Below are positions 15,007 through 50,840 of a DNA stretch of 64,000 nucleotides, piece by piece. Numbering within the stretch: position 1 is the first letter of the stretch; every line of letters starts with the position of its first letter. Made by a program: the position numbers and the translations under genes. The notes below the pieces were generated by a model, which did not search any database, had not been told where the DNA came from, and saw nothing but the letters and a program-made list of their open reading frames with translations. Location: contig CBDBGZ010000009.1 of the NCBI GenBank assembly GCA_965205425.1, positions 224,001-288,000 of the forward strand, given 5' to 3'. This stretch comes from Nitrosopumilus sp. GTDB lineage: Archaea; Thermoproteota; Nitrososphaeria; Nitrososphaerales; Nitrosopumilaceae.

Positions 15007-15008
15007 TA

Positions 15009-15236
15009 TCTATGTGAAATCTTTAAAAACATTTGCACTCTTTTGCAACACATGAGAATGGCTACCGCTAGAGATGATCCCATTCATTTTCAAAAGATGA
15101 AACCGGACACATATCTATTCGAGGATCTCCCTCAGTACCATTCTTCATCCATTTATCAGAACCATGCCGCAGTTACAAAACGAGGATCTCCCTCAATGTG
15201 TTTAACGAGGATTATAGTTCTGATCATAATGTTTCA
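15009..15236 (-). ncRNA. Putative bridge/seek RNA of IS110 variant C
   Basis: Two GAGG..CCTC hairpin units; TTGTAAC matches own left flank; ATAGATATGTG matches the end-to-end junction. Confidence 0.75.
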
Positions 15237-16347
15237 TTATGCATTTTTGATGCACTGGTAAAATGTCATGTTGTTTTTTAACATCCAGTAAATTATTCTC
15301 AACAGTTTGGATGCTGCTGCCACTGCAGCTTTTGATGTCCCCCTCTTTTTTGCAAGACGTTTGTAAAAATTTGTAATGGTGCTGTTTTTTGCATATCTTA
15401 CATGAGAATGTACTGCCTCCACCAGAACCCAGCGTAACATGCTACTTCCTCTTCTTGTTATGGACCCATGGCGTATGGTGTCAGCTGAGTTTCTCACCGA
15501 TGGTACAATTCCTGCATATGAACACAGTTTGTGAGAATCTGAAAATCTTTCGATATTGTCAATTTCAGAGGATATGGTTAATGCAGTAAATCTTCCAACA
15601 CCAGGTATTGATTCTAAGAGTTGTGCGTTAGAATCATGTTTTAGAGCATCCTTGATTCTCATGTCTGACTCTGCGATTCTATCATTGATTGATATTATCA
15701 TCTTGAGATATCCATCTATTCGATAGTCATCTAATCCCAACAGTTTGTGCACATATGAATCAGAAAATGCAGTTCCTGGTATCTTGATTGCATTTTGTAA
15801 GGTTATACTGTGAATCAAATTTTTCATCCTTGTCCTGTTGCGGACTAGTTTGGTTCTATATCTCACCAGTTGTCTTGTTTGCACGGTATCTTTTTCTGGT
15901 ACATGACAAGATGAGATGTATCCTCCTCTTAGCAAATCTGCCAAGATGTGAGCATCAATCTTGTCAGTTTTTTTCTTTGATGCTGCAATTGCTTTTGTGT
16001 GATATGGGTTTGATAGTATTACATCAAATCCTAGTTCGTCTCGCAGAAACCTAAACACGCCATACCAGACAGATGATGATTCCATTACACATTTTGAGTT
16101 TTTTGGGATTGCAGAAAATGCTTTTTTGATATCCCCTCTGGTGTTTGTAATTTTTTCATTGAATAATGTATGTCCTTTATCATCCATTGTTTCGACCTGT
16201 AAGAATTCTTTGTGCAAATCAATTCCGACATAGGTCATGGGTTTTGTCTTTCTAGTCCTAATGATTTTCTTTGGTTTTTTCTTGGAGGTGTATCTTTTAG
16301 AAACTATAGAATCAGCAGTACCATCTAAATTTCGTTGTTTATTCACA
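15009..16347 (-). mobile_element. IS110-family (IS1111-like) element variant C; recombinase 15237-16346
   Basis: VGIDLHK, VMESS, KKTDKIDA (DEDD), SIPGVG, AGIVPSVRNS; TA core at 15007-08 and 16348-49; ends TGTG...CACATAGA. Confidence 0.95.
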
Positions 16348-16352
16348 TATGG

Positions 16353-16568
16353 TTACAATTTGTATACTAGAACAAACAATCCGAATCCAGGTAACACTAC
16401 AAATGTCATAATCGTGATAGGTATATCCATCCAACAATTACTTCTATCTGCATTTGGACTCCATGTTGGATACAAACAAGCATCAGTTGGATATTGCGCG
16501 TACAGTATGATAGATACAAAGAAAGACAAAAGTAAAAAAATAGTAGATAATATTAGAAATTTGCTCAT
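16353..16568 (-). CDS. Small two-TM partner protein with Cys pair
   Basis: Two hydrophobic helices around a C..C loop; follows the protease gene. Confidence 0.65.
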   Translation of the reverse strand: MSKFLILSTIFLLLSFFVSIILYAQYPTDACLYPTWSPNADRSNCWMDIPITIMTFVVLPGFGLFVLVYKL

Positions 16569-21049: not shown

Positions 21050-21868
21050 TTAGTTAGTATAGTGCCACAAAGCTGTATATACATCCCACCAAAAAGTAGG
21101 AGAATCATATGTGTCTAGCTCAGGATTTGGCTCATTTAGCTGTTGTAAAGTATGCCATCCATTACTAATTACACTGCCATAGTGATGAGTTGTAGTATTC
21201 GAATAGATAAAATTCTCATCTCTAAATTCTCCTTCATTACAACCACCAACCCCAGTTAGGTTTTTCTTCCCATAATCATAACCTACACTATCACGATCTG
21301 CCCAAGGATGTTGGATTTGATGATATCCGCTAGCAACAAGTGAATTTTGAATACTTTGTAGATCATCAAAACCATCCTTGTTTACAGTTTTGGAAGGATT
21401 AAGATGTGATGTTTGTCCATATGTTATGCCACAAGCATTAAGTGACCAAAACCAGACACTTGTTTGACCTGAAGCACCACCTTGTGGAGTAGTTGTTGTA
21501 GCATTTGTTAGCAAACTAAACTTGCCAGATTGTGCTTTTGTCATTACATTATCTATGTCAGTTTGATCACCAGTTTTTATCACCTCGGTAATCTTATTGT
21601 TTAGTTTTGCCCATTGTTTCATGATTTTGATGTCATCACGTGATACGCTATCTTTACGCATCTGTTTTTTATCAACAACCATGTTACCTTCAGAATCATA
21701 TGTGACATAACCTTTGGAATTTGTAAATGCCTTATCTATTTCAGCTAGTGTGTATGGTTCTTTTGCAGCTTCTGCTGATTGTATTCCTGATTCACTATTA
21801 AATGGTAGAATCATCACAGCAATCAAAGTAGCAAACAATATAGTCTGTAATTTTGTTACGTTTTTCAT
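21050..21868 (-). CDS. Secreted protein (TILFATLIAVMILPF leader), Thr/Gly linker, distinct C-terminal domain
   Basis: Signal peptide resembles that of 57357-58283; start taken at MKNVTK. Confidence 0.8.
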   Translation of the reverse strand: MKNVTKLQTILFATLIAVMILPFNSESGIQSAEAAKEPYTLAEIDKAFTNSKGYVTYDSEGNMVVDKKQMRKDSVSRDDIKIMKQWAKLNNKITEVIKTGDQTDIDNVMTKAQSGKFSLLTNATTTTPQGGASGQTSVWFWSLNACGITYGQTSHLNPSKTVNKDGFDDLQSIQNSLVASGYHQIQHPWADRDSVGYDYGKKNLTGVGGCNEGEFRDENFIYSNTTTHHYGSVISNGWHTLQQLNEPNPELDTYDSPTFWWDVYTALWHYTN

Positions 21869-22002
21869 ATCCTTATCAATAACGATTTTTGATGGCAATA
21901 AAAACGGTTCTGTGTAATCTAGGTGACCTGTTTTCTTCTGTGTAGTGGGGTGACCTGAGATTTTTTATGAATTGTTAGATGGGGGTGATAACCATAACCA
22001 TA

Positions 22003-23329
22003 TGTGCCAAAATCAGCTAGGAAATTAGATGGTACTTGCATTCGTATCAAGAAAGTAAGAAATGCAAACAAACACACTACCCTTCCTGAAAAAAAATATT
22101 TGATGTTTGTAGGATTGGATGTTCACAAGAACTCTGTACAGGTGGCAGCAGTAGATGAGATTGGCAAATTATTATTTAACAAAAAGATTTCCAGTGATTT
22201 TTCTGCTATTAGCAAAATTACATCCAAAATTCCAAAGAACGCAAAATATGTTTTAGAGTCATCATCTGTCTGGTATGGCCTTTATAGACACATGACAGAC
22301 AAATTACATCTTGATGTTATACTATCTAATCCATACAACACAAAGATAATAGCATCATCACTCAAAAAGACTGATAAAATTGATGCGTACCATCTTGCAA
22401 ATTTGCTACGAGGAGGATACATTGCAGAATCATTTGTGCCAGATCACACAATTGTGCAATACAGACAGCTTGTAAGACATCGACACAAGATTGTGCGCAT
22501 CATTGTAAAGATGAAGAATTCCATACATGGTATTACACTACAGGAGGGAATCCATATCAAAGCAACACCATTTTCCTCAGAACACATACGTGCACTTGGA
22601 AAATTGGAGAGTTATAGAATAGATTCGTACCTACAAAGCATAAAATTTCACAAAAAGGAGGTTGCAAAAATAGATTCCATGATACGTCGCATGGTAAATG
22701 ATAATCCTGACGTGTGTATTTTGACATCAATACCTGGAGTTGGACCATACACTGCATTGAGCATATTCTCAGAAATTGCAGAGATTAGTAGATTTTCAAA
22801 TTCTCGCAAGTTATGTGCATATGCAGGGATTGTTCCATCGGTGAGAAATTCTGCAGATACAATACATCACGGAAGAATTACAAAGAGAGGAAGCACCATG
22901 CTAAGATGGTTGCTAGTGGAGGCAATTCATGCACATGTTAGATGCGCACCAGATAGCGACATTACAAAATTTTACAATCGCATTAAGAAAAAGAGAGGGA
23001 CCTCAAAGGCAGCAGTTGCTGCTGCATCAAAGTTATTGCGTGTCATATATTGGATGCTAAAAGAGAGGAGAGAATTTATTCAATGTCATCAATAATTTGT
23101 AAAACATTACAGTTAGGAGTTTGGCCGCGTTTTCACATTGAGGATGCATAATACCTCGAAACTATAACCGCGGTTTCACCTAATAAATGGATGAAGATGG
23201 TACTGAGGGAGATCCTCGAATAGATATGTGTCCGGTTTCATCTTTTGAAAATGAATGGGATCATCTCTAGCGGTAGCCATTCTCATGTGTTGCAAAAGAG
23301 TGCAAATGTTTTTAAAGATTTCACATAGA
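22003..23329 (+). mobile_element. IS110-family variant A, copy 1; recombinase 22004-23095
   Basis: VGLDVHK, LESS, KKTDKIDA, SIPGVG; TA cores at 22001-02 and 23330-31. Confidence 0.95.
23096..23329 (+). ncRNA. Putative bridge/seek RNA of IS110 variant A
   Basis: TTAGG/CCTAA and GGCCGCG/CGCGGTT stems enclosing guides TTTTCACA (23130-37) and AACTATAACC (23160-69); donor match 23220-30. Confidence 0.8.
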
Positions 23330-23331
23330 TA

Positions 23332-24655
23332 TGTGAATAAGAAGACAAGGAAATCAGATAGCATAAAAAATGAATCTAACAGTTCCAAAACTTGCAGTGT
23401 ACTCTCTCCAAAAAAGATTACAAACAAACAGATTAGGAAAAATCCAAAGAAAGGCATGTTTGTGGGCATTGATCTGCACAAAAAGTTTCTTCAAGTAGCA
23501 ATAATGGATGATACAGGCAAAGTATCACAAAACGACAAAGTGGATAACACTCATGAATCCATCAAAAAGTATTTTACAAAAATACCAATTTCTGCAAATA
23601 TTGTCATGGAATCCTCATCAGTCTGGTATGACACGTATCGATTTCTGACAGATACTTTGGGATACAAAAACGTCACACTCTCAAACCCATATTTGACAAA
23701 GGCAATTGCTGCATCAAAAAAGAAAACAGACAAGATTGATGCCAAGATATTGGCAGATCTTTTACGAGGAGGATACATTGCCAAATGCTATGTTCCAGAC
23801 AAAAAGATTGTACAACAAAGACAGCTTGTAAGATATAGGAAAAAACTAATCCAATGGAGAACATCTGTCAAGAATTCAGTTCATGGAATATTGTTACAAG
23901 AAGGAATCAAGATTCCAGGAGTTACATTCACTGAAACATACAACAGAAGACTCAAGGCACTAGGAGATTACAGAATAGACGGATTCTTGCAACAAATCAG
24001 CCACACCTTAATTTACAGATTGCAGAGATTAATTCCAAAGTGTATGCTGCTGTAAAAGTTAATCCTGATGCAATTTTAATAAACTCGATTCCAGGAATTG
24101 GGCATTATTCTTCGCTTGTCATTGCATCAGAGATTGCAGATATTGAAAGATTCAATGATTCTCACAAACTGTGTGCATATGCAGGAGTTGTACCATCAGT
24201 TAGAAACTCTGCAGATACAATACACCATGGCAGAATAACAAAACGAGGAAGCATGACATTGAGATGGGTTCTAACCGAGTGTATACACACTCATGCAATA
24301 CATGCCAAAGATAGTGACATTACAAAATTTTACAATCGCATTAAAAAGAAAAGAGGATCATCCAAAGCTGCAGTAGCTGGTGCATCAAAGATCCTGAGGG
24401 TGATTTATTGGATGTTAAAGGAGAGGAGAGAATTTGTACAAAATTATAGTTAGGACTGCAAGTCGCGTTGTAATTATTGAGGGACAAGGCCTCGTTTGAT
24501 AACTGCGAACAATCCTAACTAGGATGAAGATAGCATTGAGAGAATAGTCTCGTATGGATACATGTCTGCCATCTTTTGATTGAAACCATTCTCTAGCGAA
24601 AGCTATGCCCTGATGTATGGAAAGAGAGGAAATGTATAAAAACAATTCACATGGA
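23332..24655 (+). mobile_element. IS110-family variant B, frameshifted near 24000-24040
   Basis: VGIDLHK, MESS, KKTDKIDA then NSIPGIG in a second frame; ends TGTG...CACATGGA, TA core 24656-57. Confidence 0.93.
24445..24655 (+). ncRNA. Putative bridge/seek RNA of IS110 variant B
   Basis: AGTTAGGA/TCCTAACT stem; TTGTAATT (24468-75) complements the right flank AATTACAA; ATGGATA matches own end. Confidence 0.78.
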
Positions 24656-25019
24656 TAAATTACAAAAAGAGATTACAGAGCTAAAGAAGAAATTATCCTA
24701 CTATGAGAACCCAAACTCTCCACCATCATCTGATTCTCTCCACTGGAAAAAACAAAAGAAAGAACGAAAATCAACTCATCCAAACAAACCAGGACAAAAG
24801 CCAGGACATGATGGTAAAACTCACAGCTTCAAACCCACAAAAACAATTCATCATGATTCAAAGAAATGCTCAAACTGTGGCAGTAAAAAATAACTCAAAC
24901 TACACAACAAACTCGAATCATTGCAGAAATCCCAAAACCGCAACCAGTTACCATAACAAAACATGTTATTCCTTCTTACTTTTGCAACAATTGTGGAAAT
25001 ACAACAGTTACTGATTGCC

Positions 25020-26046
25020 GGGTGTGTCCTAAAAGTAGACAAATATAACAATTTTATTCAATTCTGTAACATATTGATCGCATGGAATCACAACAACTAT
25101 GCAAAACAAATCAAAAAGAGACTGGCAAGTATATGGCACATATCGCAAGGATGAGGAGATTCTATTCTTGGAAAAAGTAAAGAAGACAGTTTGGAGTATG
25201 GATACACCATGGGAACCAAAGACAGGCGGACGTCCTGCATTTCCAACAAAAGCAAAGATAATGTGTGCAATGCTAAAGGTAAAGTTTGGATTGGATTATC
25301 GTTCCATGGAGTCCCACTTGAGATCAAGGCCGGATCTGTTGGAAATAATGGAGCTCAAAAAAGCACCAAGCAAGACTGTCATTAATGACAGTCTAAAAAG
25401 AATTCCAATGCCTTATTTGAAAAAGGTAAACGCAAAACTCACAGAACCAATCAAAAAAAAGACATAGCTCCTGACAGTTCAGGATTTGGTACCAAAAGAT
25501 GTGAGGCTTGGTTTGACATCAAGACAAACACGCACAAATCCAAGAAATTATATCTAAAACTGCACATCCTAATTGCAATACAGTCCATGGCAATAGTATC
25601 TTTTGACATTACTAAAGGAACTCGTGGTGATGCACCAATTCTCAAAAAATTAATCAAAGACATTCCAAAGGGAATTGGTGATTTTTGTGCAGATCCTGCA
25701 TATTTGTCACGAGACATTTGCAATATGGTAGCTACTCTGCAAAAGATACCATACATCAAACCAAAGAAGAACACAGTTAGAAATCCCAAAGGCTCTGCAT
25801 CATGGAAAAAAAATGATAACATTATTCCAGGACAATCAAGATGAATTTGACAGACATTATCACAAGAGGTCACTTGTTGAATCAGTATTTGCAGTACTCA
25901 AAAGAATCTTTGGAAATAGCTTGTCATCAAAAAACAAGTTGGTTCAAAGAAAAGAGTTGGCGTTGCGTGTAATTTGTTACAACATACGAGTTGTTAATTT
26001 GATGGGGGTTACAAAACATGTTAGAGGATAGTTTTAGGACACACCC
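25020..26046 (+). mobile_element. IS5-like element type F, copy 1 (extra frameshift near 25810)
   Basis: TIR GGGTGTGTCCTAAAA; APDSSGF, ADPAY, YHKRSLVES; no target duplication. Confidence 0.92.
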
Positions 26047-36720: not shown

Positions 36721-38339
36721 TCAAGACATTCCAACTGTAATCACACCACCGCCAAACTCTGTAGTTGTTTTAACGTATGACGAGTATGCCGCATCATTAC
36801 TTGATGGAACAGGTGCGCCTTTTGCATCAAGATTGACCCTGATTACATACTCTATCATGTCCCCTACTGTTACCGGAGTTGCAATGTTTCCAGTTACGCC
36901 ATCTAGTGGATAAATGATGTTGACTGCATTGGTTGCTCCACGTCTCGTTTCGCCAAATGATGATGTCTCATATGCATATGCAGAGCTAGAGGTGTAGATT
37001 GTGTGGGTTTCTACATATTCCGCGTTTACAATTACGTCCACATCAACTGTAATCTGTGATGCCTGTCCGCGACTCAAAGCTGTCAGCAGCTGATCTCTGT
37101 GTCCTTCTGTCAGCGATTGCAGGTTTGTGATGCTGCCGGGATTTGCAGGAGCTGAGTATGGTCAACATATTACGGCTGAACTGGTGCTTCTAATAGGGAC
37201 ACTACTGCATATTTTTTTTTTCTACAAACTCTCCGGCATAGTTTGATGACAGGCTAAACGCAGCACTGCCTCCAACCGTGAGGTCTACGTTTGCAATTGC
37301 AGTGCCAGTATGTGTCGCAGTAAGAAACGTTGACGTGCTGATGTTTGATGATGTTGCGACGGTTCCGCTGGTACTACTGTCTGATGATGAGGATGATTTT
37401 TTTAAAACCTGCTTTATCTGCGTATGCACTGAGACATCTCGCATCAGTACCTCAGTATCTGTGCCGTTAATTGTGGCATATATTGTATCTGCACTTGGAA
37501 TTACAGGAATTACCAGCGCGTCATTTTTTGAGTAATTGCCATTCAGATAATCTAACTGCAGATTGTCGACTCGCATATTTTCAACCTCTACTGGAACTGG
37601 GAACACCCATCTGACATAGTTTTGTGGAATGTATACAAGGTTCTCTCCAGCACTCAATGGAACTGACTCTTTGTGATACATGTCAATCAGTGCAGCTCCG
37701 AGCGGTCCAATATAGGAGCCAGATTCAGGATACATCTTTAGGATTCCTCCAGATGATGATGAATAGTCCACATCATCATCCCGCAGGAATATTTCACCTT
37801 TTGCGTTGGTCTTGCCTACCACTATAGGTATTTCGTTTTTAGATATCTTATATGCAGTGTCTGGTGGCAGTCCTGATGCTCTAAAAAATACATCAGATGA
37901 AACATCAAATGATTCGCCCTTGATATCTACTGTTCCTCCATTTGGTTTTACTATCAAATACAAATCACCTGACGGCATCGTATAGGTTGTTTTTAAGCTT
38001 GCCGTAGACAAGAATTCAGAGGTATATGGCTCTGCTTCTTTTATGTTAAATGAAGCTGTAATTTTTGCCCCTACAGAACCATGTGTACCTGAAACTGAAT
38101 GACTCTTTGAAATGCTGTTAATCTTTGTATATTCTCCAAATGCTGATGTGTTTATTGATTCTCCACTTGGTACTGATACACTATAAGTTCTAATGCTAGG
38201 GGTGTGGAATGGCCCTGTGCCTCTTGTAATTGTTCCACTAAACGAACCAGACACTGCATCATCCACATTCCCTTTGACATATACCCCTACTGGCGATACT
38301 GACACTCCTGGATAAGACAAACCATAATAACTATAACCA
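36721..38339 (-). pseudogene. Large Ser/Thr-rich, probably surface protein; truncated by IS110, frameshifted and nonsense-mutated
   Basis: ORFs 37202-38339 and 36721-37077 joined by a shift at the A10 run (37212-21) plus an in-frame TGA. Confidence 0.75.
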
Positions 38340-38341
38340 TA

Positions 38342-39668
38342 TGTGCCAAAATCAGCTAGGAAATTAGATGGTACTTGCATTCGTATCAAGAAAGTAAGAA
38401 ATGCAAACAAACACACTACCCTTCCTGAAAAAAAATATTTGATGTTTGTAGGATTGGATGTTCACAAGAACTCTGTACAGGTGGCAGCAGTAGATGAGAT
38501 TGGCAAATTGTTATTTAACAAAAAGATTTCCAGTGATTTTTCTGCTATTAGCAAAATTACATCCAAAATTCCAAAGAACGCAAAATATGTTTTAGAGTCA
38601 TCATCTGTCTGGTATGGATTGTACAGACACATGACAGACAAATTACATCTTGATGTTATACTATCTAATCCATACAACACAAAGATAATAGCATCATCAC
38701 TCAAAAAGACTGATAAAATTGATGCGTACCATCTTGCAAATTTGCTACGAGGAGGATACATTGCAGAATCATTTGTGCCAGATCACACAATTGTGCAATA
38801 CAGACAGCTTGTAAGACATCGACACAAGATTATACGCATTATTGTAAAGATGAAGAATTCCATACATGGCATTACACTACAGGAGGGAATCCATATCAAA
38901 GCAACACCATTTTCCTCAGAACACATACGTGCACTTGGAAAATTGGAGAGTTATAGAATAGATTCGTACCTACAAAGCATAAAATTTCACAAAAAGGAGG
39001 TTGCAAAAATAGATTCCATGATACGTCGCATGGTAAATGATAATCCTGATGTGTGTATTTTGACATCAATACCTGGAGTTGGACCATACACTGCATTGAG
39101 CATATTCTCAGAAATTGCAGAGATTAGTAGATTTTCAAATTCTCACAAGTTATGTGCATATGCAGGGATTGTTCCATCGGTGAGAAATTCTGCAGATACA
39201 ATACATCACGGAAGAATTACAAAGAGAGGAAGCACCATGCTAAGATGGTTGCTAGTGGAGGCAATTCATGCACATGTTAGATACGCACCAGATAGCGACA
39301 TTACAAAATTTTACAATCGCATTAAGAAAAAGAGAGGAACCTCAAAGGCAGCAGTTGCTGCTGCATCAAAGTTATTGCGTGTCATATATTGGATGCTAAA
39401 AGAGAGGAGAGAATTTATTCAATGTCATCAATAATTTGTAAAACATTACAGTTAGGAGTTTGGCCGCGTTTTCATATTGAGGATGCATAATACCTCGAAA
39501 CTATAACCGCGGTTTCACCTAATAAATGGATGAAGATGGTACTGAGGGAGATCCTCGAATAGATATGTGTCCGGTTTCATCTTTTGAAAATGAATGGGAT
39601 CATCTCTAGCGGTAGCCATTCTCATGTGTTGCAAAAGAGTGCAAATGTTTTTAAAGATTTCACATAGA
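38342..39668 (+). mobile_element. IS110-family variant A, copy 2; recombinase 38343-39434
   Basis: 1327 bp like copy 1, near-identical; TA cores 38340-41 and 39669-70. Confidence 0.95.
39435..39668 (+). ncRNA. Putative bridge/seek RNA of IS110 variant A, copy 2
   Basis: AACTATAACC at 39499-508 equals the left flank 38329-38. Confidence 0.8.
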
Positions 39669-39670
39669 TA

Positions 39671-40969
39671 TGTGAATAAGAAAGCAAGGAAATCAGATAG
39701 CATAAAAAATGAATCTATACCTCGGAGCATAATTCTTTGCAATTTTTCAAAACAAATAGCAATACTTTTTGATCAGTAGTTAGAAATGATTTCATGAACA
39801 TCACAAATGACGAGTTACTCCAGGCCTACAAAAAAGAAAAGTACGGTAAGAAAAAGGAAAGACTGCATGCAATGTGTAAGATTAAAATCAACGAATCCAC
39901 AATTGCTGAAACTGCCAACCAAATGTTTTGTACATACAATTCTGTAAGGAATTGGCTTGATTCATTTGAAAAATACGGACTAGAGGGCCTGGAGGATCTC
40001 CCCCCTCGTTCTGGCCGTCCGCCATTAATTTCACACAAAAAATTACAAAAAATAGAGCGTACATTTAAGAGAATTTCAAACGGCATGACTCCAAAGAAAC
40101 TGATACAATTCATATTTTACAGAACACGCATTACATATCATATCACTCACGTGCGTCCTTTGATGCACAAATGGAATCTAAAACCAAAGGTTCCCCAAAA
40201 GGTACATGTGCGAGCAGCATCCAAGGATGTGTGCCGCAAGTGGAAAAACCGCATCATTTCACGCATAGAAAAGGCAAAAAAGAAAGGTTTTACAGTATTC
40301 ATCCAAGACGAGTCTGTATTTGTAGACGATGTACGTCTTGGCAAAAAATACTGGACAGATGTACATCAACGAATGATTGTACGTTGGAGAGGATCGCACC
40401 AAAGATTTTTGGTTTATGGAATGATGACTGATGATAATCAAAGTTTTTTTAGATCGTATGAAAAATTTAATTCAATTGCATTTATGGATTATTTAGAGGC
40501 AGCTCGTAGAAAATTCGGGAAAATATTTGTTATCGTCGATAGAGCGCCACAACACAAAGCTAATGATGTAAAAAAATATCTGCGTAAAAACAAGGATGTC
40601 AAACTGGCATATCTTCCAAGAGGTTCTCCACATTTGAGTATGATTGAAGAGATTTGGAGACAGTGCAAACATGTTAATGTTGAATCAGAATTTTATGAAT
40701 CTATTCATGAAATGAGGTATACAGTTATGGAATATTTTAGAACCCACAAATTTAATTTGAATATGTATCAGTATTTTACAAGAACAGTAAATTGAAAAGA
40801 CTTATGATCTGGGGTATAGTTCCAAAACTTGCAGTGTACTCTCTCCAAAAAAGATTACAAACAAACAGATTAGGAAGAAACCAAAGAAAGGCATGTTTGT
40901 GGGCATTGATCTGCACAAGAAGTTTCTTCAAGTAGCAATAATGGATGATACAGGCAAAGTATCACAAAA
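39671..40969 (+). pseudogene. IS110 variant B 5' remnant, interrupted by IS630 and cut by ISH3-like element
   Basis: 39671-39717 and 40819-40969 match 23332-23532. Confidence 0.9.
39718..40816 (+). mobile_element. IS630-family type D, intact 333-aa transposase 39794-40795
   Basis: TA duplication 39716-17 / 40817-18; complete ORF. Confidence 0.95.
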
Positions 40970-42289
40970 CAGTAGATGGGAAAGTACATCAAATTACACA
41001 TTCTAGGAAATAATTATTTTTGTTATTTCTAAAGTAATGAATAATTATCTTTACAAAGAAATATTTGAGAATTTCAATTGATATTATTGGTTTGTAATTT
41101 TTTACATTGGTTTCTTCTGAGATAATCAAATTAGCAATTATCCATGCATTGTACAAAATCAATGAATAGTAAAAATACAACAATCTTATGGATTGGTTTG
41201 AACTGGTGGTTTTTGGTCTGAACCTTCCCACACATGCATATCCTGTTTCAATTCCCCAACGTTTCTTGTAATCAGTTGGAATGTTTTGTATGTTATATGA
41301 TATTTCTTTTGGTGAAACGTTTGTTGCAAACACAACATACTGATCAATAATATTTGATTTTTTTCTTGCATTTTTGTTTGGCAGAATAACTAGATTAAAT
41401 GATTCTACATGTCCTAATGATGATTTTATCGTGTATGGCGAGATTGACTTTCTATCTCCATTAACATATTGTAAAATGGCATCTTTGATTCGAGAATTCT
41501 TTTTTGCAGGCATTAGAAATTTTAAATTCTTTTGTTTTATTTCTGAAATTGTTCCAGCTGTGAAAAACTCCCTATCCACTAGCAATAGTTTAATCTTGAT
41601 TCCATTATTGATGCCATCAGAGAGTAATTTACGCACAAAATCGGCATTTGATTTGTTGTCATACAAAGGATAACGACCTAATTGAGCCCTGATTCTTTTT
41701 TCAACGCACTGCATGGTGCAGTAACTCTCAAAATGAGTAGTACTGTTTTTTGATTTTGATTTTATTAAAGAATGGTTTGGCAATTTGTCATATCTTGGGA
41801 TTAGATGTTTGTCAATTGCCACAGTAACTGGTTGCTCCAATACTCCCAATTCTTGTAATTTTGATATGGTACTATCCAGTGAACGATGTAATTGAATTTG
41901 CATTGTTTTTTGTGATATTTTTGATATGATTTTTCTCAACCATGAAACCAGTTGGAGAAGCATTATCTGATTCCATTGCCAGTCTCTTTAATCCAGATTC
42001 AGAATATGAATTTCCCAAACACAATGACATGATAGAATTATGTGCATCTGCATTGTGGAACCGTGAGTTATTTTTACTAGAGCATGGAAACAACAAGATA
42101 TTGTACATTATTTTAGTGATAATCTCAAATGCTTTAGATAGTATCACGCCTTGGTGTGTCATGGTATCAAATGAAGTACAATGCATATTTGATGGAGTGA
42201 CATACTTCCATCAAGCTTTTTCTATCTGAATAGATTGATTGAATAATTGATAGTTTTTGATCTAAATTGAGTTACTTTCCCATCTACTG
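40970..42289 (-). mobile_element. ISH3-like (IS4 superfamily) element, frameshifted transposase
   Basis: 17-bp TIR CAGTAGATGGGAAAGTA; VAIDKH, LLVDREF, YKKRWGIETGY; ORFs 41872-42186 and 40989-41963. Confidence 0.9.
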
Positions 42290-48655: not shown

Positions 48656-49697
48656 TGTTCTTTCCAGAAATTATTTCGTGTCACTTTCATGAGTAATTCC
48701 TCCATAGAATGCTTGGGTCTATGAGTATTTCGTTTGTTATCATCTTGGAGTGATACGCATCAGATGGTGTCTCCATGTTATCCAAGTCTAGTGCGCCATG
48801 AACTCTAATGTGATTGTACCAATGCATAAACTGCTCCACTGACTCAAAGTATTCTATTTTACACTCAAAGATATCCCAGAACTTTTCTAGCTTACCATTT
48901 GTTTGTGGATGTCTCACTCTTGTACGAGAGTGCTTTACGTGATGTCTCATTAGTTGCTGCTCAAAGTCTACTGGCTTGTTATGATCAAGAGTATTGACAT
49001 TTGATGTGAACTGTTTTCCATTATCAGATAGTACGGATGCTGGTCTACCGTGATTCTTTATTGCATCAGATAGTACTGCAGAAGAATTCACAGATGTTGC
49101 CTCATCATACACTCCGAAACCCGTGATAAATCGTGAGGCATCATCTTCAAATGCAATTAGTTGTTTTCCTGCCCAGCGTGAATCATGTATTGTGTGCCAG
49201 TCAGTATGCCACAGTGAATTTGAATATTCACGTTCATACCTGATCCACTTTCTTCTCATCTTTTTCCGTGGTTGCTCAACTGATAATCCTTCATCTAGCA
49301 TAATCTTGTGGATGCGATTGTGGTTTATCTTGGTATTGTACAATTTTGATATGATTTTCTCAAGGTATAGTGCGTTTGTATGAAATTTTTCTTGAACTTG
49401 TTTGACTAGCTCTATCTCGTGTACAGTGACTGGCTTTTTTGGACGCCCTGGTCTTTTGAGTGTGGGAATCTTTTTGGTTTTTTTGTACTGAGAGTAGACT
49501 TGTTGTACTCTTCTAGGCGTTATCTTGAGGATTACTGAAATATCTAAATTCTTGACTTTTTCATTTTTAGATTGTATAATCCACCTGATCTTATTCTCAT
49601 CTAACTTTACCATAGGTATGCCACGATACCCACGCATACGATAGTATGGGAATGATGCTCTCCTAGTTAAGGGGTGAAATAATTTCCGGAAAAGATA
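48656..49697 (-). mobile_element. IS481-family element; transposase 48687-49613
   Basis: LWHTDW, DDASR, SDNGKQF, HPQTNGKLE; imperfect IR; 15-bp duplication ATCGTTCCAGTAATA (48641-55, 49698-712). Confidence 0.95.
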
Positions 49698-49757
49698 ATC
49701 GTTCCAGTAATACATAACAACTTGAAATGGAACAATCCTGGAACAATACATGAAATA

Positions 49758-50840
49758 TACCTCGGAGCATAATTCTTTGCAATTTTTCAAAACAAATAGC
49801 AATACTTTTTGATCAGTAGTTAGAAATAATTTCATGGACATCACAAATGACGAGTTACTCCAGGCCTACAAAAAAGAAAAGTACGGTAAGAAAAAGGAAA
49901 GACTGCATGCAATGTGTATAATTAAGATCAACAAATCCACAATTGCTGAAACTGCAAGCCAAATGTTTTGTACATGCAATTCTGTAAGGAACTGGCTTGA
50001 TTCATTTGAAAAATACGGATTGGAGGACCCCCCCCCTCGTTCTGGTCGTCCGCCATTAATTTCACATAAAACATTACAAAAGATAGAGCAGGAATTTAAG
50101 AGAATTTCAGACGGCATGACTCCAAAAAAACTGATACAATTCATATTTTACAGAACACGCATTACATATCATATCACTCATGTGCGTCGTTTGATGCATA
50201 AATGGAATCTAAAACCAAAGGTTCCACAAAAGGTACATGTGCGAGCAGCATCCAAGGATACATGCCGCAAGTGGAAAAACCGCATCATTTCACGCATAGA
50301 AAAGGCAAAAAAGAAAGGTTTTACAGTATTTATCCAAGACGAGTCTGTATTTGTAGACGATGTACGTTTTGGTAAAAAATACTGGACAGATGCACACCAA
50401 AGATTAATTGTACGTTGGAGAGGATCGCACCAAAGATTTTTGGTTTATGGAAATGATGATAATCAAAGTTTTTTTAGATCGTATGAAAAATTTAATTCAA
50501 TTGCATTTATAGATTATTTGGAAGCAGCTCGTAGAAAATTTGGAAAAATATTTGTTATCGTCGATAGAGCACCGCAACACAAAGCTAATGATGTAAAAAA
50601 TATCTGCGTAAAAACAAAGCTGTCAAACTGGCATATCTTCCAAGAGGGTCTCCACATTTGAGTATGATTGAAGAGATTTGGAGACAGTGCAAACATGTTA
50701 ATGTTGAATCAGAATTTTATGAATCTATTCATGAGATGAGACATACAGTTATGGAATATTTTAGAACGCACAAATTTAATTTGAATATGTATCAGTATTT
50801 TGCAAGAACAATAAATTGAAAAGACTTATGATCTGAGGCA
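49758..50840 (+). mobile_element. IS630-family type D, frameshifted
   Basis: TA flanks; ORF shifts near 50600. Confidence 0.93.

Follow-up and report, generated by a model that had tools for sequence, protein, structure and literature searches.

Introduction

IS4321 and IS5075, which are insertion sequences (ISs) of the IS1111 type, reportedly insert within the end of a different mobile element, always at one position. Here we describe a piece of archaeal DNA in which an element of the same type seems to be aimed at the ends of its own siblings. The stretch that was analysed, called the window throughout, comprises 64,000 nucleotides (nt) of a Nitrosopumilus sp. genome (the source genome; GenBank assembly GCA_965205425.1, contig CBDBGZ010000009.1, positions 224,001 to 288,000) and contains two loci at which an element A lies directly to the left of an element B. 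A, B and a third element, D, appear to belong to one family of related IS1111-type ISs (within the IS110 family) that encode a DEDD transposase and, in the 3' noncoding region, a predicted two-loop bridge or seek RNA. Our reading, which we consider likely, is that A is programmed by its guide against the left ends of its siblings and nests there, and that the nested pair would then be mobilised together and recombine into chimeras with exchanged guides.

Research on bridge and seek RNAs treats them as programmable tools for recombination, while little is known about their natural guide targets and about where the guides come from. In the IS1111 group, according to one report, the noncoding region downstream of the transposase gene is longer, and in the seekRNA the top-strand target match comes first, 5' of the match to the bottom strand (Siddiquee et al. 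2024; PMC11187229). For IS621, another report describes a handshake of the bridge RNA: bases of the donor are matched by the target loop as well, and bases of the target by the donor loop (PMC11208158). Two further systems produce adjacent elements. In ISPpu9/MITEPpu9 of Pseudomonas putida, different combinations of ends circularise either module or both (Pares-Guillen et al. 2025, PMC12288879), and in the targeted conservative reaction of IS26 an incoming unit inserts beside a resident IS26 (Harmer, Moran and Hall 2014, PMC4196232).

Results

Structure of the A-B tandem

Three tandems of A and B (T1, window 21989-24657; T2, window 38328-40970; T3, contig C8:46867-49518) and a fragment of a fourth (contig C8:37756-37929) are present in the source genome. 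The right end of A directly precedes the left end of B in 4/4 of them, and it is B that follows the right end of A, again in 4/4. In T1, all features of which are on the + strand, A ends at 23329, the next two bases (23330-23331) are TA and B resumes at 23332; in T2 the corresponding positions are 39668, 39669-39670 and 39671. An initial annotation of the window, made from the letters alone, had placed A directly to the left of B with only TA in between at these two loci, and the junctions bear this out. Contigs in two public runs also span the A|B junction. Arrays of more than two elements were not seen.

The order of parts in T1 is that of one insertion within another. At the far left is a TA (21989-21990), the left copy of the core of the B insertion (now an insertion of the A+B composite); solitary B in a related genome has TA on both sides. 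It is followed by the severed left tip of B, a 4-nt terminal extension ACCA (21991-21994). Solitary B starts with ACTA+TATGTGAATAAG in 5/5 copies; in T2 the severed tip is ACTA (38330-38333, + strand). The next TA (21995-21996) is the left copy of the core of the A insertion in the left end of B; it recurs at 23330-23331, as read at the junction, whereas unoccupied solitary B has one TA here. Between these two copies lies element A (21997-23329; left end ACCA+TATGTGCC, right end ...CACATAGA), whose limits follow from the end architecture of the whole family and from the comparison of occupied with unoccupied sites. The rest of B extends from 23332 to 24655 (right end ...CACATGGA) and the right copy of its TA occupies 24656-24657. 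T2 has the same order on the + strand, with TA, the B tip ACTA, TA, A copy 2 (38336-39668), TA and B copy 2.

A encodes an intact transposase of 332 amino acids (22097-23095) with the Pfam domains DEDD_Tnp_IS110 (PF01548; 7e-22) and Transposase_20 (PF02371; 1e-23). Approximately 100 nt upstream (21997-22096) and 234 nt downstream (23096-23329) are noncoding. The transposase of B is split into two reading frames (23456-24055 and 24040-24453), each half with one Pfam domain, and the guide RNA region of B lies at 24450-24590 (5' loop 24468-24476, 3' loop 24495-24504). The proteins encoded by A and B share 55% identity over the N-terminal half and 76% over the C-terminal part. A contig of public run X19 carries a B variant that lacks 2 nt near 24002, which would join both transposase halves in one frame.

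The surroundings of the tandems differ in part from what had been supposed. The initial annotation put T1 inside an IS66 remnant whose frame would be restored by removing both elements. To the right of T1 there is indeed a 5'-truncated IS66-family copy, from 24658. The left flank shows no homology to IS66 (its local alignment scores 21; shuffles have a mean of 17 and a maximum of 29), and an intact IS66 copy (contig C4:48060, 99% identical to the right flank, PF03050) begins MGDFHDCKQCDKLQKEI, so that the proposed restored frame does not hold. T2 had been assigned to a surface-protein gene, and the open reading frame (ORF) on its left (37202-38416, minus strand) has no Pfam match. B copy 2 is itself interrupted by an IS630-type insertion (approximately 39717-40817; ORF 39794-40795 with DDE_3 and HTH domains in Pfam) and is truncated after 40970. 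There it adjoins an IS4/IS5-type transposase gene (PF01609; 40989-41963, minus strand). Elsewhere in the source genome, two A copies (contig C4:23022-23653, minus strand, and C4:98344-98975, plus strand) are truncated at the same position, 632, and run into the same unrelated sequence with different left flanks; they may be another composite, or one secondary insertion that is present twice.

Ends and recombination core

The recombination core of the family is TA, because the paralogous empty sites and the ends of relatives all agree on it. The empty site of two chimeric copies described below (C1 and C5) reads ..CAATAA-TA-ATTTCAAAG in 3 paralogues, the IS66 site to the right of T1 reads ..GCGA-TA-AATTAC.. 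in the intact paralogue, and the empty site of the multicopy element to the right of T3 reads ..GGGAA-TA-ATCACAG.. in 17 paralogues. All have TA in common with the element junctions. A search of 151 genomes yielded 11 related loci in other genera (64-73% identity); one additional genome (G092) gave a single 25-nt match and is used for no claim. The left end is flank-TA-4 nt (ACCA; ATCA once)-TATGTG in 11/11 of these loci and the right end is ...CACAT(A/G)GA-TA-flank, also in 11/11. A left end is thus composed of a 4-nt extension and a short subterminal repeat. The repeats, TATGTG(AA) and (TT)CACATA, measure 6-8 bp, and the terminal extensions 4 nt on the left and 2 nt on the right (6 and 4 if one TA is assigned to the element). 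A core of AT, AA or GT with the host target ATAACC was considered and dropped, since the paralogous empty sites and the relatives fix TA.

None of the 11 related loci has the extra hexamer ACYA-TA that stands before the left end of A in 10 of the 12 copies in the source genome. In one of the remaining two copies the hexamer is cut by another IS; the other is shortened.

Approximately 25-30 nt inside each left end there is also a same-sense copy of the 5' strand of the element's own donor loop (A, 22024-22034; B, 23359-23367; matching donor loops at 23194-23203 and 24529-24537, respectively). Across the family this internal motif covaries (GGTAC, GGTTG, GGTAG; in B, AGCAT), and it forms an inverted repeat with the start of the left end. 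The chimeras hold a noncognate combination of internal motif and donor loop, yet sit at several loci.

Predicted guide RNA

In an alignment, A, B, D and ten relatives share one architecture of the 3' region, with two loops. An outer stem surrounds the target loop, which consists of a stem, a large internal loop and a hairpin, and a second stem-loop (the donor loop) follows. RNAalifold finds 16 consensus pairs, and compensatory changes occur in 8 of these. In A, the predicted target-binding stem-loop is at 23110-23185 (5' loop guide 23130-23137, 3' loop guide 23159-23169; based on the fold and the alignment) and the predicted donor-binding stem-loop at 23189-23245 (3' guide 23219-23233, 5' strand 23196-23204; based on compensatory stem pairs), both on the + strand. 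An Rfam scan of 21800-24900 returned two chance-level matches and no bridge-RNA family.

Throughout A, B, D and the relatives, the 5' side of the target loop complements the DNA to the right of TA, and the 3' side equals the bases to the left of TA, TA itself and ACC or ACT, the start of the element's own left end. For A, what is complemented on the right is B. The complement of the 5' loop agrees with the first 8 bases of B at 7/8 positions, and the C>T change in the guide of A copy 2 keeps a G-U pair. The 3' loop guide equals the B tip, TA and the first 3 nt of A; what it matches in B is the terminal extension and not a target preference. The ATAAC motif to the left of A (ATAACCA) is neither host DNA nor a target preference of B, and comprises the severed tip of B, TA and the first bases of A itself. 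As a whole, the target loop of A reads AACTA-TA-TGTGAAAA. The flanks of A are (T)AACYA-TA on the left and TA-TGTGAATA on the right, and when joined they make a left end of the family type (tip, TA, subterminal repeat). Therefore A is nested in the left end of B at an internal TA, and the TA is duplicated. The initial annotation had A directed at the left junction of B; the left end of B stands as the target, but the site consists of B's own tip, TA and repeat instead of the boundary between host and B.

We scored guides against flanks by the best 9-nt window. The A guide reaches 8/9 on the left end of B, while 0 of 275 noncognate guide/flank pairs reach 8 (maximum 7), which upholds the earlier claim that the right guide of A complements the left end of B. 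Over all elements, 9 of the 25 own sites score at least 8 of 9, compared with 0 of the 275 non-own pairs. The complement of the B 5' loop scores 9/9 on the right flank of one B-ended copy and 8/9 on that of another, that of the D loop 9/9 on two flanks, which are IS66 terminal repeats, and those of two relatives 9/9 (L004) and 8/9 (L006). The left guides are too short for this score and show no discrimination.

The donor loop, in turn, reads the element's own ends. Its 3' side equals the right-end bases and TA, and an A/G position in it agrees with the right end in 15/15 elements; in A this guide (23219-23233) corresponds to the right-end bases, TA and TGTG. Its 5' side, AUGGU in A (23196-23204), complements the start of the left end, ACCAT, and is altered correspondingly in B (ACTAT) and L011 (ATCAT). 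Some positions resemble a handshake: the 3' side of the target loop ends in the ACC or ACT with which the left end starts, and the donor loops of A and D continue into TGTG, the first bases of their targets, whereas that of B continues without a match to its own target.

Occupied and unoccupied sites in related genomes

A scan of species-representative genomes for the signature of a nested tip gave 33 loci. Eighteen of these are in two records of Nitrosopumilus sp. metagenome-assembled genomes, 17 in OZ242186.1 (G151) and 1 in OZ250170.1 (G152); the remaining 15 are unrelated and approximately as many as expected by chance. In metagenome scans, the pattern of the B left end had 0 matches, and a right-end|left-end junction pattern had 50 loci, none of them like A, B or D by BLAST and about the number expected by chance for an 18-mer.

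G151 contains the unoccupied target. Five complete solitary copies of B have the form flank-TA-ACTA-TATGTGAATAAG...CACATGGA-TA-ATTA.., with right flanks that match the B guide, and 2 of the 5 (L107, L108) retain an intact transposase ORF of 331 amino acids. The same genome also has nine A-type copies, whose target loop is that of A. Of these, eight are at the exact internal TA of the B left end, and the ninth (L106) occupies the equivalent TA in a D left end, where the severed tip is ACCA as in solitary D. The A of L106 is near-identical to the tandem A copies (2-3 differences). One tandem (L100) and one solitary B (L111) have paralogous flanks (left flank 243/250 identical) and form an occupied/unoccupied pair. 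Solitary B and A-in-B therefore coexist in one genome, which agrees with the earlier proposal that A lands on existing copies of B. The right end of A in G151 is CACATGGA, and its donor loop is altered in step.

In G152, a relative of A (88-89% identical) adjoins a single-copy element that resembles D (78% identity). The complement of the 5' loop of this diverged A matches the left end of the D-like element at 8/8 positions. When the right flanks of all A copies in the three genomes are tabulated, as had been proposed, 14/14 A-type copies adjoin the left end of a sibling (4 in the source genome, 9 in G151 and 1 in G152; the partner is B in 12, D in 1 and the D-like element in 1), and there is no solitary A with an unrelated flank. 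Because of this 14/14 adjacency and the 8/8 guide of the diverged A, we regard A as probably programmed against the left ends of siblings.

The five full A-type copies read in G151 (L098-L101 and L106) have an extra G in a short run of G at element position 414 (the equivalent of window position 22414), which splits the A transposase into 171 and 237 amino acids. The alignment of L098 shows the inserted base.

Element D and the chimeric elements

D is present in the source genome as three complete identical copies (window 15007-16355, minus strand; contig C2:53260-54606; contig C5:1392-2738). Its left end, ACCA+TATGTGAATAAAC, resembles that of B and is an unoccupied target for A as good as that of B, while its donor loop, distal 3' region and right end are identical to those of A. 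D has a target loop directed at the terminal inverted repeat of an IS66-family IS, and 2 of the 3 complete copies are located at a TA that forms bases 2-3 of such a repeat; a further 13 IS66 ends, which fall into the same two kinds (6 and 7), are unoccupied in the source genome. The D copy in the window has a different right flank with a poor guide match.

The commonest form in the source genome is a chimera, in which the left end and transposase of A are joined to the 3' region, guide RNA and right end of B. There are six copies, four on contig C9 (1144900-1146195, 483636-484931, 86715-88011 and 39379-40676) and two on contig C5 (207255-208551 and 226925-229369). The switch from A to B falls at 885-895 in three chimeras, at 956-986 in two and at 1061-1072 in one, with mosaic patches. 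As there are at least three different switch points, recombination between A and B must have happened at least three times. Two chimeras of the source genome and one copy in G151 have two stacked ACYA-TA hexamers at the left, which fits repeated nesting followed by collapse, or slippage of a 6-nt repeat. Another IS (ends GGCCTTGTAGAAACC..., contig C5:229370-230344, approximately 25 copies in the genome) is inserted in the hexamer to the left of chimera C5, with an 8-bp duplication, CTATAACC.

The A of the source genome is a chimera as well. Its target loop (the proximal 95 nt) is identical to that of the G151 A at 95/95 positions and to that of D at 62/95, whereas its donor loop and right end (the distal 139 nt) are identical to those of D at 139/139 positions and to those of the G151 A at 103/139. 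This is the product that would be expected from a collapsed tandem of A in D.

Spread of the pair and alternative explanations

The nested pair keeps the 4-nt tip and the right end of B, the parts that are read by the B donor loop, and chimeras with exactly these outer ends (B tip and B right end) are found at five or more separate loci. Between the 5 tandem and the 5 solitary copies of B in G151 there are six sites with fixed differences, and 3 of these are common to both tandem B copies of the source genome. T1 and T3 differ in A at 4/1331 positions; in B they differ at 0 positions in 598-1324, which holds the transposase split, and at 37 clustered positions in B 47-597, which look like a conversion patch. 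For most copies, the pair probably also moves as a unit through the ends of B. The divergence of T1 and T3 had also been considered as a sign that A is younger than B, and this was rejected because the B differences form one clustered patch and do not reflect a uniform age. Comparison of the tip allele (ACCA or ACTA) with the phylogeny of the A parts gave no signal, as there are 0-12 differences in 880 nt, in a mosaic.

Could A and B then be a composite and nothing else, as the initial annotation offered as its alternative? In this explanation A entered B once, all later copies arose by transposition of the whole pair through the ends of B, and the guide match is a relic. The explanation does account for most of the spread. 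The tandem alleles of B described above have no counterpart in solitary B, T1 and T3 are near-identical outside one patch, A occupies 4/4 B ends in the source genome and 0/6 equivalent D ends, and the loci of the chimeras with the same outer ends imply that those ends are mobile. It has no place, however, for the near-identical A at a D left end in G151 or for the diverged A, with its 8/8 guide, at the left end of the D-like element in G152. These two partners require separate insertions of A alone, together with selection on the guide, and a pure composite model therefore fails on them. We consider it unlikely. It is also conceivable, although very improbable in our judgement, that the tandems arose without guidance by RNA, either from a crossover of a circular sibling with a resident copy or from two insertions at a hot spot, the complementarity being due to the repeats of TGTG type that the elements share. 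The 5' loop of A does resemble the right-end repeat of the family, and recombination between copies is frequent in the source genome. But the junctions are exact in all 12 A-B cases (TA on each side, the tip on the left and the repeat on the right) and match unoccupied solitary B, both sides of the loop find their match, including the left guide with the B tip, the diverged A has a perfect guide, and no noncognate pair among the 275 reaches the observed score. The circular crossover in particular was dropped, since solitary B copies show simple insertion at TA. From the source genome alone, where the left end of B never occurs without A, one might even take the hexamer plus A for a native, longer left end of A, B for a 5'-truncated remnant without a tip of its own and the pair for one ancestral element with two genes. 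That is barely credible, and already contradicted, given the five solitary B copies of G151 with their own ACTA tip (2 with the full 331-amino-acid ORF), the lack of the hexamer in all 11 relatives and the internal left-end motif, which is cognate to the element's own donor loop in A and in B alike.

Several observations weigh against guide-directed nesting of A, or against parts of it. The fold energy of the A RNA by itself is no better than that of shuffled sequences (z = -0.84), and support for the structure comes from covariation and from the matches between guides and flanks. The extra G in the A copies of G151 may be a real frameshift or an error of the assembly consensus; if it is real, A moves in trans there. 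A maximum-likelihood tree of the B copies leaves their order within G151 open and allows, without proving, a single origin of tandem B. The predicted 15-nt target of A has 38 sites with at most 2 mismatches in the source genome, and A is present at 0/6 D left ends and at 0/3 host sites with one mismatch, all of which match like the occupied B ends. Given these unoccupied equivalent D ends, transposition of A alone is rare, or currently inactive in the source genome. Circle junctions and empty-site joints are absent from the assembled contigs of the public runs, which cannot show rare forms. Finally, the left and right flanks of T1 (window 21700-21988 and 24658-25060), of T3 (contig C8:46467-46866 and 49519-49918) and of two further copies, C1 and D3, do not adjoin each other in paralogous empty sites. 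At one G151 locus (L098), the left and the right flank come from two different known sites, and the mismatch of flanks suggests exchange by recombination between copies; deletion or inversion may also be involved. The source genome is very rich in ISs, one neighbouring IS being present in at least 17 copies.

Discussion

The anatomy of the tandems, the matches between guides and flanks, the occupied and unoccupied sites and the chimeras were observed directly. From them we infer the expression of the RNA, the circular intermediates, the acting transposase and the order of events. A circle of A would integrate at the TA inside the left end of a sibling and duplicate the TA. This would have happened at least three times across the genomes, once each into B, D and the D-like element, so that insertions of A alone would be rare and the composite would afterwards spread through the ends of B. 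As the outermost 4 nt and the right end of B are kept, the guide RNA of B and either transposase could mobilise the nested pair as one unit. Homologous recombination between the two transposase 3' ends or between the two guide regions would then collapse tandems into chimeras and reassort the guide modules, giving an A transposase with a B guide RNA in one case and an A target loop with a D donor loop in the other.

It is tempting to see in this RNA-programmed hyperparasitism among sibling ISs an engine of natural reprogramming, with nesting and collapse as a general route to new targets in the IS110 family. We offer this tentatively and would rate it at somewhat less than an even chance. A might also use existing B insertions as a safe harbour and build arrays, as had been suggested for the window.

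The locus provides a natural case, present in three genomes, of a guide directed at a sibling's end. Its targets are known in occupied and in unoccupied form, one variant has a perfect match, and both loops can be clearly assigned. It offers a simple substrate, a 15-nt site composed of sibling tip, TA and repeat. Nested pairs may move via the ends of the outer element, and recombination within such pairs may be a way in which target and donor loops are shuffled between transposase lineages. More broadly, ammonia-oxidising archaea have an active and diverse population of IS1111-type elements, including a sibling aimed at IS66 repeats, which bears on the plasticity of their genomes.

With IS1111 and IS110 elements, as far as the available parts of two reports describe them (Siddiquee et al. 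2024, PMC11187229; Durrant et al. 2024, PMC11208160), the present family shares the DEDD and PF02371 domains, the downstream noncoding region, the order of the guide matches, subterminal inverted repeats with short asymmetric extensions, a second loop that matches the element's own ends, and natural retargeting through changes in the loops. The target is what differs from those accounts: it is the left tip of siblings of the same family instead of host DNA, a REP sequence or attC. The repeats of IS1111 elements are usually 11-13 bp with extensions of approximately 6-7 nt on the left and 3 on the right, compared with 6-8 bp, 4 nt and 2 nt here, and the host lineage here is archaeal. The two loops, with a separate donor loop that matches the element's own ends, are also reminiscent of IS621 as far as it is described in the available text (PMC11208158); the analogy to its handshake holds for A and D and is unclear for B.

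In position the elements resemble IS4321 and IS5075, as A stands at the TA after the 4-nt tip of a sibling in 14/14 cases and D is found in the terminal repeats of IS66-family elements. In our case, however, the victim belongs to the same IS family and has homologous ends, the outer ends are predicted to be functional, and the homology allows guide-swapped chimeras to form.

ISPpu9/MITEPpu9 similarly consists of two adjacent modules with related ends, which explains both solitary and linked copies. In the part of that account available (PMC12288879), a small-RNA MITE, located downstream of the transposase, forms the second module and the adjacency is not ascribed to a guide programmed for the partner, whereas here both modules are full ISs and the guide of the left one matches the tip of the right one. 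IS26 also lands at resident kin and gives rise to adjacent arrangements; by the available part of its description (PMC4196232), it does so with a DDE transposase that recognises identical ends by protein, with no guide RNA, in cointegrate-like arrays and without nesting at a dinucleotide. In the literature listings we searched, there was no account of an IS110-family element that directs its guide to the left tip of its relatives, nests there, is co-mobilised and exchanges guides. Targeting of the ends of mobile elements and modular circles are already known from other systems, and what appears to be new here is a guide aimed at the left tip of a sibling.

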